A stretch of 54,864 nucleotides of DNA from a bacterium (GTDB lineage: Bacteria > Bacillota_I > Bacilli_A > RF39 > UBA660), in assembly GCA_030531905.1 (NCBI GenBank), contig JAUNMG010000007.1, positions 1-54,864 of the forward strand. Reading direction: 5' to 3'. Position numbers and translations under genes: made by a program. The notes under the pieces were generated by a model that saw only the letters and a program-made list of their open reading frames with translations, made no database searches and was not told where the DNA came from. Below are positions 41,129 through 50,077 of this stretch, in pieces; the first letter of the stretch is position 1, and every line of letters starts with the position of its first letter.

Positions 41129-41205
41129 GTCTTCGTAGCTCAGTAGGATAGAGCAATCGCCTCCTAAGCGATAGGTCGGCAGTTCGATTCTGCCCGAGGA
41201 CACCA
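41129..41205 (+). tRNA. tRNA-Arg (anticodon CCT)
   Basis: Acceptor GTCTTCG/CGAGGAC, D arm GCTC..GAGC, anticodon arm ATCGC-CTCCTAA-GCGAT, T arm GGCAG-TTCGATT-CTGCC, encoded CCA. Confidence 0.97.
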
Positions 41206-41242
41206 ATGGCGAATCTGTTCGAACTATTCGAACTTTAAATAT

Positions 41243-41270
41243 ATGAATCAATCAGAAATGATTGATTTTT
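41243..41270 (+). terminator. Terminator after tRNA-Arg (inside island left end)
   Basis: aatcaatca-gaaa-tgattgatt followed by T run. Confidence 0.75.
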
Positions 41271-41299
41271 TCGTTTTTTGAAAAAATCATAGAAAGGAT

Positions 41300-41578
41300 T
41301 TGTCTATGATAAATATTATTAAAGAAGAAATTGAAATTGAAGAATCTTTAGAATCGAGGTTAAGAGTAATATGTGATTTTTGTAATACTACTCCAACAAT
41401 AATAAATGGAAGTATTAGAAGAATTGATAAAACTAATTTAACTTATATTGAGCCACATAGAATATATATTAAAAACAATTTATATCTAGCATTTAATTAT
41501 TCTAGTGAAATATATGTTAATAATTTAGGTAAAAAAATTAAATTATCAGAACTTGAAGATTATATAAAACAAGCATAG
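41300..41578 (+). CDS. Small hypothetical protein at island left end
   Basis: 92-aa ORF with AAAGGA RBS; contains CDFC; function unknown. Confidence 0.6.
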   Translation: MSMINIIKEEIEIEESLESRLRVICDFCNTTPTIINGSIRRIDKTNLTYIEPHRIYIKNNLYLAFNYSSEIYVNNLGKKIKLSELEDYIKQA

Positions 41579-41581
41579 GTC

Positions 41582-41763
41582 TTGACTTTTGAAATAAAAA
41601 CTATTATTATAAATAACCAATAAATGACAAGCAGTATCCGTCTTTTATTAGAAAGCGAGGTACATCTATGGTCAAATACACAATTCATTTAAATAAAATT
41701 TATAATAGAAATATAAGAGGAGTCAAGAGTATTACTTGTTAATGCTTTTGTCTCCTCTTTTTT
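41582..41763 (+). promoter_or_regulatory. Recombinase promoter and attenuator-like leader (leader ORF 41668-41742, terminator 41715-41763)
   Basis: TTGACT-N17-TATTAT; GAGGT RBS and 24-aa ORF; long hairpin aagaggag...ctcctctt plus T run. Confidence 0.55.
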
Positions 41764-41787
41764 CGTAGAAAAAGGAGTGATAAAGTT

Positions 41788-43773
41788 ATGAATGAAGAAA
41801 AGAAAATCGCAGGACTTTATATTCGTGTAAGTACCGAAGATCAAGCAAGAGAAGGATTTAGTTTACCAGAACAAGAAAAACGTTTAAGAGCCATGTGTGA
41901 GTTTAAAGGATACGAAGTATATAATGTATATGAAGAACGTGGAATAAGTGCTAAAACTGGTAATTATAGACCTAAATTTGAAGAACTATTACAAGATATA
42001 AGAGATAAAAAAGTAAATACTATTGTAGTATTAAAATTAGATAGATTAACTCGTTCAGTTGCAGACTGGGAAAAGATTCTTACTTTCCTAGAAGAAAATG
42101 ATGCATATTTAGATTGTGCTAATGATGATATAAATACAACAAATGCTAATGGTAAAATGATTTCAAGAATACTTACTTCAGTTTCACAACAAGAAATTGA
42201 AAGAACAAGTGAAAGAACTAAAATAGGACTAGCTGGAGCAATTAAAGTTGGTCATATTCCTCATCAAGCACCTTTAGGATATAAACACGAAGACAAGAAG
42301 TTAGTAATTGATTATGCTACAAAAGATGTAGCCATAAGAATATTTAATATGTATCATGAGGGAATGTCTTATCAAACTATTAGTAATATTTTAAATGAAG
42401 AAAAAGTATTAGATAAAACTAATTGGAGAGATTCAACTATATTTCATATATTGACAAATGAAATATATAAAGGAGATTTTGTTCATGGTAAAAGAACTAA
42501 AAAGCCTACTTATTATAACGATGTAGTTGAACCTTTGGTTACAAAAGAGTTTTGGGAAGAATGCCAAGTTCAAAAGAAAAAGAATCAGAGAAGTTTTCAA
42601 AGAAAATTAACTTATCTATTTATGCAAAAATTAAAATGTCCAAAATGTAAAAGAATATTAGGTGGTAAAGCAACTACTAAAAAGAATAATAACTCTTATT
42701 ACTATTATTATTGTAATGATTGTAAGATTACTTATAAAGAAAATGAAATAGAAAAAATAATTGATGAATATATGGATTCAATTGTTGAGTATGATTCAAT
42801 AGTAAATCAATTTTTCTTACCTATGATAAAACAAAAAATTGAAAATCCAACGGAAGAATTACAAAAGGAATTAAAGAATCAAAAATCTAAATTTGAAAGA
42901 ATTAAAGAAGCATATATCAACGAAGTATTTACTTTGAAAGAATATAATGAAGAACGAAAGAAAGTTGAAAAAGTAATTGAAGATATAGAAGATAAATTAA
43001 ATACTAGTGAGGTATGTGAAAAGTTAAAATTTACTCCTAATGATATTTTAGTTAAAAGAGATATAGACTTTATCAACTCTATCAAATACCCAGAAAAATA
43101 TAAAAGTAAAACTAAATTTTGGAATGAATATACTCGTGAAGAAAAAGCAGAATTATTAACTAAATATGTTGAAGAAATAGAACTAACTGATAAATATGGA
43201 TTTCTAAATGTAGATTATATAAAATTTAGAGAAAGTGTTGCTAATGTATCAAATGAATTATATTTTAACGGATATTATGATAGATATATTCCATCAATAT
43301 TTGGTAATATTTATGGTCAAATTAGATTTAGTGAATATCTACCTGAAAAAGAAGTTGGAGAACAAATAATGAGATTAAGACAATTCTATGATGTTGGTTA
43401 TTACGAAGCAACTTATAATGTTAAAAATCAAGTATTCTACTTCAACTTTGTAAAAGATAATAAAGCATTAGTAAGAGTATTTCCACTAGAAGATTATAGA
43501 AAGATAGATCCTGATATGAAAATGGAAACATATAATCTTGGAGTATTGTATGTTAAGGAAGATGATGGAACATTACTAGCAAATGAAGATGATGTATTTA
43601 AATACATTCCAGCTGAATGTGATTGTAATGTTGTTTATAGTAAGGAACCAATATTCGTAGAAACTAAACCTGTTCTTCACTATAAAATGTGGGGCACGTT
43701 TTGTTACGAAGTAATGAAAGTGGCGATAACATATTATAAAACGGATTCTAAGGAGTCCTTAGCCCACTGGTAA
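41788..43773 (+). CDS. Large serine recombinase (resolvase + recombinase + zinc-ribbon domains)
   Basis: YIRVSTEDQ catalytic Ser, E.GISAK...[35 protein letters not shown]...YYYCNDC, coiled coil. Confidence 0.95.
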
Positions 43774-43807
43774 TTTTGGCTCTGCCAAAATACCTAGGGG
43801 GTTATAC
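43769..43807 (+). promoter_or_regulatory. Putative MOBV (pMV158-type) oriT / RSA site
   Basis: Inverted repeat ggtaattttggc-tct-gccaaaatacc followed by TAGGGGGTTATAC, similar to the MOBV nick region TAGTGTGTTATAC; lies upstream of the relaxase. Confidence 0.65.
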
Positions 43808-43855
43808 ATTTTGGATAGACCTAAAATGAACTATAAAAGAGAGGTAGTAAATTGT

Positions 43856-48527: not shown

Positions 48528-48667
48528 TGAAGGTATAGGAATATAACTTTTAAAGTTATTTATAATAAAATTATTGCTCATATTATTATGATTTGTTATA
48601 ATTTATATAGATTGATTCATATGAATCGTTATTGCCGAAAAAAAGTTGTAGACCTCTACGTCGTCGG

Positions 48668-48741
48668 CACCAGATTGATATGAAACTCGAACTTTTTCGG
48701 GATAACATAAAAACTACTTTCAAATTAAATTAAAGGTAGTT
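48668..48741 (+). repeat. att-like junction repeat, copy A
   Basis: CACCA-gattgatatgaaac-TCGAACT-ttttcgggataacataaaaactactttcaaat...aaggtagtt; homologous to 49263-49334. Confidence 0.8.
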
Positions 48742-48882
48742 GTATTTTATTAATTTAAAAATACACTTGCAAATTGTCAAAAATTAACATTTATTAATTG
48801 GAGAAAATATGGTAGATAAAAAATAAAGGAAATAAGAAACCTGAAATTGATAAGAACAAAAAAATATATATGGAGTGTAAAC

Positions 48883-49149
48883 ATGGGTAGAACAAGTGAA
48901 AATGACTTTATTTCCAGAATAAAAGAGATAAGAAAAAATATGAACTATACTAGTGCTGTATCTAGAACAGAACCTGTTGCTAAAATTCCCATAAATGGTG
49001 CAAAATTAGAAGAATTGGATAGGAGTATTAGAGAAAAATGTAGACAAAATCATTTAGAAAATCATAATTTAGAAGATAATGATGAAATTTATTATGCTGG
49101 TAATTCACAGGAAAAATGTTCAGTAAAGAAACTGACAAGAAAATACTAA
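48883..49149 (+). CDS. Hypothetical protein (sole gene of unit 2)
   Basis: ATG 48883 after GGAGTG; ends SVKKLTRKY. Confidence 0.6.
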   Translation: MGRTSENDFISRIKEIRKNMNYTSAVSRTEPVAKIPINGAKLEELDRSIREKCRQNHLENHNLEDNDEIYYAGNSQEKCSVKKLTRKY

Positions 49150-49262
49150 ATTGCGGTAAATATATTGTTTTTTTAATGCTTTGATGTAATTACTTTAGTT
49201 AGTAAGTTTATTACTTACTATCATCTTTTAGCCTTGGGGTTGTTAGATATACTCTTTCCTTG

Positions 49263-49334
49263 CACCAGATTGATAGTAAACTCGAACTTCTCGAGATAAT
49301 ATAAAGCTACTTTCAAATAAGCAAGAAAGTAGTT
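49263..49334 (+). repeat. att-like junction repeat, copy B
   Basis: CACCA-gattgatagtaaac-TCGAACT-tctcgagataatataaagctactttcaaat...aaagtagtt; homologous to 48668-48741. Confidence 0.8.
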
Positions 49335-49456
49335 TTTTAAATTTTACAAATTGATTTCATCAATTAATGTGTGATGAATATTTTTATATATTTATTGACA
49401 TATATTCAAATAATATTTAAAATATAGTATAATTAAATAGAAATGGAGACTTTATT

Positions 49457-49999
49457 ATGATTGAAATAAATAAATTAAAATCAATGATAAAAAATAATAA
49501 AAACGTATTTAAAGATAATATAAATGATATGACTATAAAATCATCAAGTGGTAATAATATAATTTTTAGTGATTTTAAAGGAAACGAAATAACAGCAGAA
49601 ATTAATGGTAGTGATATAATATCTAGATTTGATGATAAAAATAAGTATGTTAAGGCTACAGAACCATCAAGAGATTTTTTAGAAAGAAAATTAGGAATTC
49701 CATATGAAGAATTTGACAAATTAGATTGTGATGAACAACATAAAATTCTTCAAGCACATAAAAAGAGTTTAAAACCAACTAAAAAAGATGAAGTTCTAAT
49801 GATGATTGGAAGTGGTGAATATTCAACTTTTATCAAAGTAAAAAAAGGTGAAAGAGTAATGCTTAGTGATGGAACTTTTGTTGAAGCAGGTTTAACACTG
49901 GAAGAATCAAAAAGAAGATTAGATGATAAAATGGATGATATGCTATATAGTAAACCAGTTGCCTTAGTAAAAAAAATTAGTAGAAAGTTTAAAAAATAA
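49457..49999 (+). CDS. Hypothetical protein (sole gene of unit 3)
   Basis: Promoter TTGACA-N17-TAAAAT at 49395; GGAG RBS; shares a ~50-aa segment with the N-terminus of 46924; ends LVKKISRKFKK. Confidence 0.7.
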   Translation: MIEINKLKSMIKNNKNVFKDNINDMTIKSSSGNNIIFSDFKGNEITAEINGSDIISRFDDKNKYVKATEPSRDFLERKLGIPYEEFDKLDCDEQHKILQAHKKSLKPTKKDEVLMMIGSGEYSTFIKVKKGERVMLSDGTFVEAGLTLEESKRRLDDKMDDMLYSKPVALVKKISRKFKK

Positions 50000-50026
50000 T
50001 TTTTGGAAATTGGTTTTCCTTTATGG

Positions 50027-50077
50027 CACCAAATTGTTAGAAAATGTCTTGATTTTAAATGATTTCAAGGCGTTTTT
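50027..50077 (+). terminator. Distal CACCA junction with terminator (probable right boundary of island)
   Basis: ggCACCA-aattgttagaaaat (10/14 match to copy B arm), then aaaatgtcttga...tcaaggcgtttt hairpin plus Ts. Confidence 0.55.

Follow-up and report, generated by a model that had tools for sequence, protein, structure and literature searches.

Integration into tRNA genes is conventionally tied to tyrosine integrases. Large serine recombinases (LSRs) are known to build arrays elsewhere: in the staphylococcal cassette chromosome (SCC, SCCmec) CcrAB or CcrC insert DNA at the 3' end of rlmH without inactivating the gene, and tandem units occur, ccr-less elements lying beside complete ones. 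The Dehalococcoides islands at ssrA, which encode the CcrB-like recombinase DsiB, are described as tandem and bounded by repeats, and some of them, devoid of an integration module, have been proposed to be mobilizable in cis (PMC3146451). Among Prochlorococcus tycheposons, 27 of 937 are reported to carry an LSR rather than a tyrosine recombinase (bioRxiv 10.1101/2020.12.28.424599). Reviews of integrative mobilizable elements (IMEs) place the sites of serine integrases inside protein genes, the Islander paper states that no serine integrase is known to have tRNA genes as targets, and the main text of a 2022 survey of LSRs, in which targets are defined by the protein genes disrupted, contains no mention of tRNA (PMC10083194). 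Serine-recombinase elements sitting at tRNA CCA ends are not described in the literature searched, the supplementary LSR and TIGER/Islander tables lying outside the search. We analyzed a stretch of DNA, hereafter the window, which corresponds to contig JAUNMG010000007.1 (54,864 bp, 26.5% G+C) of a bacterium of the RF39 lineage (assembly GCA_030531905.1; 1.36 Mb in 66 contigs). An original prediction, made on the window sequence alone, had read the region downstream of its tRNA-Arg(CCT) gene as an integron-like cassette array built by an LSR, and knew of no described equivalent. The latter statement holds for the family as a whole in the literature searched, but SCC, the Dehalococcoides islands and LSR-bearing tycheposon-like elements are partial precedents. 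The region is probably a tandem array of site-specifically inserted units, its formation driven by a clade of LSRs, in which a complete element is followed by two miniature members of a second subfamily.

The only tRNA gene found by ARAGORN in the window is tRNA-Arg(cct). The T-loop of this tRNA, GTTCGA, is 24 nt away from the 3' end, and the last five residues, CACCA (C72-A73-CCA), are the core of the first junction (J1, 41201); CCA is encoded by all 25 tRNA genes called in the genome. Copies of the core at 48668 (J2), 49263 (J3) and 50027 (J4) delimit three head-to-tail units of 7467, 595 and 764 bp, which make up an island of 8826 bp (41206-50031; Table 1). Seven CACCA are present on the plus strand between 41000 and 50300, four intergenic, which are the junctions, and three within open reading frames (ORFs). 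At J1, J2 and J3 the core is followed after 13-14 nt by TCGAAC, a pattern matched three times in the window and never in 100 shuffles. The sequence GCACCARATTG occurs at 48667, 49262 and 50026, and once more at 26381 (shuffle mean 0.03). The latter match (GCACCAAATTG, 26381-26391) looks by eye like coding sequence, no ORF having been mapped there, and is taken as a chance match.

Junction positions, TCGAAC motifs, unit sizes and gene content (LSR, mob, Pycsar and two ORFans in the first unit) had all been predicted, and agree with the coordinates and with the Pfam and PADLOC searches. The homology of the J2 and J3 regions, said to extend for ~70 bp, is real but shorter, 86.4% identity across 59 nt; the J4 arm AATTGTTAGAAAAT and the J3 arm GATTGATAGTAAAC share 10 of 14 residues by hand count, as announced. 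A hairpin had been placed after every junction. A hairpin with a T-run behind it is indeed predicted by folding in all four regions (z = -3.1, -1.8, -3.1 and -4.7 from J1 to J4), but that at J2 is weak, 9 of 200 shuffles folding equally well, and a simple terminator scan requiring at least three G-C pairs calls none of the four, because the stems are A+T-rich. In the left arm of unit 1 a small palindromic hairpin (~41217-41233) precedes a 10-bp hairpin with T-run (~41245-41271), and a 13-bp hairpin with T-run is predicted in the trailer that follows J4.

The association of the recombinase with tRNA ends was monitored in 80 public loci encoding LSRs 57-96% identical to that of the window. In what follows, L- and G-numbers are working labels of the loci and genomes compared, and C-numbers are contigs of the genome to which the window (C11) belongs. 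Relatives retrieved by protein search derive from uncultured gut bacteria, labelled as Bacilli, Tenericutes, Clostridium sp. CAG:433, Candidatus Faecisoma (Mycoplasmatota incertae sedis at NCBI), Aphodocola and Coprovivens. At 50 of the 80 loci ARAGORN detects a tRNA or tmRNA (transfer-messenger RNA) gene on the same strand, ending 505-1185 bp upstream of the LSR gene, and the arm found in unit 1, hereafter the alpha arm (TTGACGAATCTGTTCGAACTATTCGAAC), starts at the first base past CCA. By a stricter parse, called tRNA or tmRNA genes are 49; at six loci tRNA- or tmRNA-like ends escape ARAGORN; nine were filed as internal junctions of the right-arm type, two of these (L109, L121) being mis-picks with tRNA-type ends; one locus lies at a contig edge, 11 have less than 700 bp of upstream sequence, and in four no junction was found by the pattern, one of which (L117) has a variant arm. 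The 49 called targets are tRNA-Leu(tag) (11), tmRNA (8), tRNA-Thr(cgt) (7), tRNA-Leu(caa) (6), tRNA-Thr(ggt) (5), tRNA-Gly(gcc) and tRNA-Gly(tcc) (3 each), tRNA-Thr(tgt) (2), and tRNA-Phe, tRNA-Arg(cct), tRNA-Leu(gag) and tRNA-Arg(ccg) (1 each), and the range of the clade thus comprises at least 12 tRNA anticodon species and tmRNA. Where tRNA genes are clustered, the element lies behind the last one (L051, L053, L064). The distance from junction to LSR start has a median of 592 bp over 65 loci. LSR homologues were detected in 40 of 120 genera sampled, and matching junction sequences in 78 of 200. As judged from these comparisons, the family is tied to tRNA and tmRNA CCA ends, widespread and apparently undescribed, in accord with the predicted link between LSR and array.

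The same alpha arm is found in the genome under study behind tRNA-Arg(cct), tRNA-Leu(caa) on C17, tRNA-Leu(tag) on C53 and the tmRNA on C5, the latter cut by the contig end but aligning to a called tmRNA; variant arms lie behind tRNA-Thr(ggt) on C26 and tRNA-Gly(gcc) on C56. Overall, at least nine loci of this genome (contigs C5, C17, C53, C26, C56, C1 and C37) feature arms of the LSR-element family. Elements encoding LSRs 96% identical to that of the window, which resides at tRNA-Arg(cct), are found at two other genes, tRNA-Thr(cgt) in L044 and tRNA-Leu(caa) in L059. Nucleotide homology between window and L059 begins exactly at 41201, is 95.6% up to 43686, and resumes at 48572-48696 (97.6%), the cargo in between being different; the right-end region of the window element is 97-98% identical to those of L044 and L059. 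Recent transfer from one tRNA gene to another would be expected to leave such a pattern.

Past the LSR genes lies a conserved right arm (P-alpha, AAAGTTGTAGA...GGCACCA), which ends in GCACCA or, at tRNA-Gly, in GCTCCA. The right arm of unit 1 fits the P-alpha consensus made from 50 arms, and over the 31 nt compared the left side of J2 does not differ from the right-end junctions in L044 and L059. A P-alpha arm directly terminates 34 of 42 delimited units with an alpha LSR, or 38 of them if four intervening TTCCA pattern matches, regarded as spurious, are discounted. Counts were corrected by hand, since the automatic unit table includes spurious TTCCA and TACCA junctions, and tmRNA ends read as CTCCA 3 nt early. 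A permissive right-arm pattern matched the genome 170 times, for the most part irrelevantly, the informative matches being C17:4890, C37:10313 and C50:23772.

It could be objected that the array was built by another enzyme, either a tyrosine integrase supplied in trans or the Pre/Mob protein of unit 1 acting at a site of its own. The genome does encode six tyrosine recombinases (PF00589), one beside tRNA-Thr(cgt) on C5, and Pre proteins were first named for plasmid recombination. Yet no PF00589 match is found on C11, C37, C50 or C17, the LSR genes keep a fixed distance from the junctions, and LSR units with no relaxase match (L094, L111, L117, L121, the beta units in L059 and on C37) are still armed. 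Moreover, the repeat spans 5 nt only, to be compared with the longer tRNA-fragment repeats which the Islander paper reports for tyrosine-integrase islands. We consider this alternative highly improbable. The C5 tyrosine recombinase gene (C5:5430-5951), next to tRNA-Thr(cgt) at C5:6076-6151, looks like part of a classical tRNA island, unrelated to the LSR family.

A second subfamily, beta, is exemplified by an LSR encoded on C37, 47% identical to the alpha LSR of the window, and flanked by distinct arms (left TTATGATAGGAAACTCGAAC; right AAGTTATTCGACTTCTTCTTCACAGGCACCA, at C37:10313). All four LSRs more than 60% identical to it for which upstream sequence is available lie 514-566 bp past a tRNA CCA followed by a beta arm, the targets being tRNA-Leu(caa) twice, tRNA-Gly(gcc) and tRNA-Leu(gag). 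The four delimited beta-LSR units all end in the right arm P-beta, GTTGTt.tACTTC..GGCACCA, one after a doubtful TACCA match. When the C37 LSR was used as query, 18 of 30 loci were found to have a called tRNA or tmRNA abutting an arm, tRNA-Cys(gca) adding to the range of targets; the habit of residing at tRNA ends therefore spans the whole clade, down to ~43% identity.

Units with two arms and no recombinase were found with both types of ends. Recombinase-less units with beta left and P-beta right arms reside in L062 (780 bp, at tRNA-Leu(tag)), L066 (962 bp), L052 (2114 bp, at tmRNA), L044 (2678 bp) and L091 (4898 bp), and, at tRNA-Arg(cct) in relatives of the same genus, in G003 (1366 bp) and G007 (2945 bp). 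Small alpha units are found in L068 (1215 bp) and on C17 at tRNA-Leu(caa), the latter (2027 bp) featuring both arms and a 258-aa relaxase fragment. Stacking is not confined to the window: seven LSR elements (L047, L052, L056, L062, L069, L091, L108) lie behind another unit and not behind a tRNA. In three of these arrays (L052, L062, L091) a beta unit is proximal and an alpha element distal, the reverse of the order found in the window. Because both orders occur, the order of arrival cannot be read from position alone, and the predicted displacement of older units by newcomers inserted next to the tRNA remains a conjecture.

A second array was spotted in the same genome behind tRNA-Gly(tcc) (C50:10726-24162), and has a U73 core. 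Its first unit (5.9 kb) encodes a distant LSR (25% identical), and has at its right end a copy of 8 nt from the tRNA end (CCGCTCCA). The second is an alpha-like LSR element (59% identical) with a right arm ending in GCTCCA.

Units 2 and 3 of the window belong, by their ends, to the beta subfamily and not to the alpha subfamily of unit 1, because both open with beta left arms and close with P-beta right arms, full-length in unit 2 and degenerate in unit 3. Unit 2 carries a small ORF of no known family (48847/48883-49149), followed by a module of ~110 bp (49158-49267) which terminates in the P-beta arm GTTGTTAGATATACTCTTTCCTTG plus CACCA (J3); homologues of the module are found at the right end of the 2.9-kb unit of G007 and in several other genera. 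Unit 3 carries a single gene (ORF180, 49457-49999), also of no known family, and ends in ...TTTTCCTTTATGG plus CACCA (J4). Only the two ends of a 333-aa ORF of G176 are matched by ORF180, through residues 1-73 and 67-110; the stretch 71-171 has 79% identity to a gene of 110 aa found behind tRNA-Arg(cct) in G103, and a 51-aa motif (41% identity) is shared with the N-terminus of ORF270, a cargo gene of unit 1. Both units are probably deletion derivatives which retained the two ends. The original prediction had them as gene cassettes mobilized in trans. They do lack a recombinase, have two arms and have counterparts elsewhere, but the arms being of the beta type, the enzyme to be called upon is encoded on C37 rather than in unit 1; in principle both may move in trans by means of such a beta-type recombinase, unit 2 being the better candidate.

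Alternatively, in an otherwise genuine array, units 2 and 3 could be the inert remains of full-length beta elements which inserted and decayed in place, their resemblance to cassettes being illusory. The two-ended match of ORF180, the degenerate right arm of unit 3 and the relaxase fragment left in the C17 unit all fit such decay, as does the finding that no second copy of either unit was detected at another site among the 200 genera sampled. Decay does not readily account for the maintenance of both arms and, in unit 2, of a right-end module matched in several other genera, nor for the similarity to two-armed units, 0.8-2.9 kb long, residing behind different tRNAs and tmRNA; a beta LSR is, in addition, still encoded in the same genome. 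We regard inert relics as possible rather than probable.

An empty site was found in genomes of three other genera (G043, G166, G211), in which tRNA-Arg(cct) directly abuts a sequence 89-94% identical to residues 50029-50092 of the window. The alignments of the tRNA (41128-41205) and of the trailer overlap by 3 nt, CCA. The stretch 41206-50031 is therefore extra DNA, and the sequence past J4 is the trailer of the tRNA itself, with its terminator; by this comparison the block is an insertion breaking at CCA, as surmised in the original prediction, and its units are bounded at the core. About 100 bp past the tRNA-Arg trailer, a conserved sequence (...TATGGCACCATTTTCGGCACCG...) is found in L174 and L176, which resembles a right arm of the J4 type (TTATGGCACCA); the trailer regarded as native might itself represent a relic, namely the left end of a tiny unit. 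The discriminator residue of tRNA-Arg(cct) is G (CGCCA) in the three empty-site genera (L174, L175, L176), and A (CACCA) in all eight relatives of the same genus in which the tRNA end was recovered, out of 15 stretches fetched. One of these eight loci (G016) hosts an alpha LSR element, and seven begin with a beta-type arm. In L040 (G012:C18), from a relative of the same genus, the orientation of tRNA-Arg(cct) with respect to the neighboring genes that precede it in the window is reversed.

The prevalence of beta-like arms directly behind tRNA-Arg(cct) in the genus could mean that the J2 and J3 arms are duplicates of a native tRNA trailer, spread between tRNA loci by gene conversion or homologous recombination. 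In G008, indeed, a gene cluster also found in G001 and G005 comes immediately after the arm. Against this, each of the small units ends in an arm of the P-beta type plus CACCA, which does not derive from a tRNA and is found again at the right ends of beta-LSR units, and beta arms are the left arms of LSR-bearing elements residing at Leu and Gly tRNAs. Trailer duplication thus looks improbable.

If the units were inserted site-specifically, the junctions allow a recognition scheme to be drawn. Targeted tRNAs aligned from CCA fit the consensus GTTCaA.TCc..t.acc.GCACCA, with G53 24 nt from A76. In P-alpha arms (AGTTGTAgAtaACTtCg.CaatcGCACCA) the motif lies 28 nt from the end, in P-beta arms 29 nt; in left arms the inverted motif TCGAAC ends 19-20 nt past CCA. 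The T-loop-like hexamer of element half-sites (GTTGTA or TCGAAC) is accordingly 4-5 nt farther from the core than in the tRNA. Structural work on a Listeria phage integrase reportedly revealed a difference in geometry between the attP and attB half-sites of serine integrases, similar to the difference in spacing between element and tRNA seen here. The chromosomal half-site would be the tRNA itself (T-loop GTTCRA, 3' strand of the acceptor stem, N73 and CCA), which the arms of the element would imitate. Only C72-N73-CCA, 5 nt, is common to all junction types, the integrated state alone being observed, and strand exchange should take place within this core or at its edge because no other sequence is common to all. 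P arms end in CTCCA in the arrays at tRNA-Gly, which has U73 (L099, L105, L106, L107, L114 and C50), and in CACCA in A73 arrays. Such covariation fits a 2-bp crossover including N73; lineage specialization would give the same picture. A palindrome, CAATGG-CA-CCATTG, was noticed by eye in the circle junctions reconstructed for some elements. As it is missing from the element of the window, crossover at C72-N73 is only a suggestion.

In the mechanism we propose, three units inserted in tandem behind tRNA-Arg(CCT), unit 1 being autonomous, with strand exchange occurring inside the 5-nt core. The tRNA would stay intact because insertion falls after its last base; the left arm then supplies a new hairpin and T-run, in keeping with the predicted role of the arms as terminators for the tRNA. 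We infer catalysis by the LSR, as well as the crossover position and circular intermediates. Units 2 and 3 would have arisen as miniature beta members by internal deletion, and could be moved in trans by the beta LSR encoded on C37. A wider proposal, to which we give somewhat less than even odds, is that this clade of LSRs reads the architecture of the tRNA 3' end, i.e. the T-loop GTTCRA and its fixed spacing to C72-N73-CCA, so that a landing pad would be offered by every terminal tRNA or tmRNA gene with a matching discriminator. All four types of site (tRNA end, left arm, right arm and hybrid junctions) would then be competent for recombination, and complete elements and recombinase-less cassettes of 0.5-3 kb could be stacked, shuffled and moved in trans.

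A number of points weigh against reading the island as a tandem array driven by LSRs. Stacking would need the LSR to use hybrid (attL- or attR-like) junctions, and classical serine integrases avoid hybrid sites unless assisted by a directionality factor; the Tn4451 recombinase is reported in a review to integrate and excise without any. No recognizable right arm is present in 4 of the 42 delimited alpha units, the right arm of unit 3 is devoid of the GTTGT motif, and ORF180 appears internally deleted relative to the 333-aa gene. The genomes with the empty site belong to other genera and have a tRNA ending in CGCCA (G73), not in CACCA; the 64-bp trailer is better conserved (89-94%) than the tRNA (74-88%), and could itself be a relic arm. 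No empty site of the same species was found, a metagenome scan with a 30-mer from the tRNA 3' end having yielded three loci only. The nearest relative, G006, with flanks 86-97% identical, was considered as a source of an empty site and rejected, the tRNA being followed there by a beta-like arm and terminator, and then by the flank from 50341; the break at CCA expected at this locus in relatives is thus seen in three other genera, and not cleanly in G006. A beta-like arm with its terminator, and no right arm, stands as an apparent plain trailer of the tRNA in L029 (G006), L033 (G008) and L184, where it makes an insertion of ~75 bp relative to L185. Arms survive also as plain trailers, and cannot always be distinguished from native ones; the origin of solo arms is unexplained by conservative recombination. 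Balanced against the anatomy of the array, the boundaries of the insertion and the association of LSR genes with tRNA ends, all of which are directly visible in the genomes compared, these points leave the tandem, LSR-driven array, with units 2 and 3 as beta miniatures, at a probability of about 0.78.

The genes of unit 1 are listed in Table 1. The LSR combines a catalytic domain of the resolvase type with its serine, a Recombinase domain and, further on, a zinc ribbon (PF00239, E 1.8e-34, residues 10-155; PF07508, E 1.2e-17; PF13408, E 9.4e-4, with a score of 20 bits, under the cut-off of 25.3), and by these features is a large serine recombinase. Residues R13, S15, C284, C287, C309 and C312 are invariant in the 14 sequences aligned, and the catalytic domain, including the motif YIRVSTEDQ, can be aligned with its counterpart in the TP901-1 integrase (E 5e-19). 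CcrB and XisF are its best named relatives in NCBIfam, both far below the family cut-offs. No close relative was found in phage records (best hit ~30% identical, 0 of 947 covering 80% of the query) or in plasmid records (~31%, 0 of 4521). Between left arm and LSR lies a conserved gene encoding 90-92 aa (ORF92); of 70 ORFs extracted upstream of the LSR at the 80 loci, 68 are homologous to it. The protein is confidently modelled by AlphaFold2 (pLDDT 92.5), has no match in Pfam, PHROG or PADLOC and one, far below cut-off, in NCBIfam, and gives no convincing fold match (Foldseek best E 0.12; VIA best Z 6.5, inside the stated background). Weak fold matches include anticodon-binding domains of class II aminoacyl-tRNA synthetases (Z 4.2-5.3), in the range of noise, and no claim is made on these. 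From its position the gene is a candidate directionality factor, regulator or accessory factor. The recombinase-less unit of G007 keeps a small ORF at a similar position, the two sequences not having been compared.

The relaxase, which also matches NCBIfam MobV below cut-off (E 4e-9), is conserved in most alpha elements. Adjacent PycTM and PycC genes (PADLOC, 4.9e-31 and 3.1e-83) identify a Pycsar pair, which is absent from the near-identical elements in L044 and L059. None of the 10 ORFs in 41206-50031 matches type IV secretion families in Pfam. Having its own LSR, a Mob_Pre relaxase and no pore genes found, unit 1 is by gene content an IME. The C-termini of ORF270 and ORF261 share a 13-aa tail, E(Q/E)GPVKKLVPN(K/N)K, identical at 11 of 13 residues. 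The cargo genes ORF270, ORF261 and ORF180 appear assembled from shuffled modules.

Table 1. Features of the tRNA-Arg(CCT) island in the window
Feature	Coordinates	Strand	Basis and remarks
tRNA-Arg(CCT)	41129..41205	+	ARAGORN; consensus of targeted tRNA ends
Unit 1 left arm (P'-alpha)	41206..41271	+	ATGGCGAATCTGTTCGAACTATTCGAAC; same arm behind other tRNA/tmRNA ends
Conserved 90-92-aa gene (ORF92)	41306..41578	+	between left arm and recombinase
Large serine recombinase, 661 aa, alpha subfamily	41788..43773	+	Pfam
83-aa ORF	43811..44062	+	weak LPD5 match only
MobV/Pre-family relaxase	44059..45444	+	PF01076, E 4.2e-12
Pycsar pair	45486..46821	+	PycTM effector 45486-46076; PycC cyclase 46087-46821
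Two cargo ORFs without family, 270 aa and 261 aa	46918..48527	+	Pfam scan
Unit 1 right arm (P-alpha), J2	48642..48672	+	AAAGTTGTAGACCTCTACGTCGTCGG + CACCA
Unit 2, 595 bp	48673..49267	+	beta-type left arm GATTGATATGAAACTCGAAC + hairpin
Unit 3, 764 bp	49268..50031	+	beta-type left arm GATTGATAGTAAACTCGAAC, 12-bp hairpin + T-run
Putative native trailer of tRNA-Arg(CCT) (B')	50032..50092	+	homology in G043, G166, G211; fold

Targeting of CCA ends in tmRNA and in no fewer than 12 tRNA anticodon species sets this LSR clade apart from the convention that links tRNA genes to tyrosine integrases. Because the repeat is only 5 nt long, these elements would escape programs that detect islands by searching for tRNA fragments. 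Should the proposed recognition logic be true, every bacterium would offer a natural landing pad for integrase tools, the movement of defense genes such as Pycsar among the 1-1.5 Mb genomes of uncultured gut bacteria would find an explanation, and a test case would be at hand for serine integrases acting on hybrid sites.

Among described systems, the array resembles by function SCC, the Dehalococcoides islands, tycheposon islands and IMEs of the Tn4451 type. With SCC it shares an LSR, whose best NCBIfam match is CcrB, insertion at the 3' end of a conserved gene and tandem stacking between short repeats. The LSR is not a Ccr protein, scoring 130, 86 and 74 bits for CcrB, CcrC and CcrA vs. cut-offs of 900, 900 and 700, and one recombinase is found instead of a pair, many tRNA and tmRNA CCA ends are targeted instead of rlmH (orfX), the size of the units is far below that of SCC, and a MobV relaxase is encoded. 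The Dehalococcoides islands are similarly serine-recombinase islands stacked in tandem behind a tmRNA gene. As described in the report cited above, they differ in being inserted inside the T-loop with a 20-bp repeat, in having ssrA as sole target, and in carrying a six-gene module with a second, small recombinase; the family of the window breaks at N73-CCA, has a 5-nt repeat, and exploits the broad set of targets given above. Tn4451/Tn4453 are reported to be IMEs of ~6 kb which, like unit 1, associate an LSR (TnpX) and a Pre/MobV relaxase (TnpZ) with cargo, but in the account of a review have low target specificity and 2-bp identity at att sites. The N-terminal domain of TnpX matches the LSR of the window only at E 7.7e-5, and DUF4368, given as the marker of the TnpX/TndX-type multi-targeting clade (PMC10083194), was not found in the latter by Pfam. 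Tycheposons, as reported, are also cargo elements accumulating in additive islands beside tRNA and tmRNA genes; most differ in having tyrosine recombinases, partial-tRNA repeats and, in many instances, replication genes, the LSR minority being uncharacterized in that report.

As in integrons, small and often single-gene units are stacked between repeated sites, and functions are added at a fixed chromosomal point. Integrons rely on a resident tyrosine integrase (IntI), on attI and folded attC sites, and on one promoter shared by cassettes that have none, whereas here autonomous units bring their own serine recombinase and every unit opens with a terminator. None of the six PF00589 genes of the genome lies on the contig of the window, none of the island ORFs is a tyrosine integrase, and junctions are made up by a tRNA-like core with arms. 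As judged from its genes and junctions, and with no attC model having been run, the array is not an integron, and the term used in the original prediction was abandoned; the LSR elements lack the features by which members of SCC, Tn4451 and integrons are recognized. If the proposed scheme is true, they are rather a serine-recombinase counterpart of cassette capture, carrying defense genes through small-genome gut bacteria.

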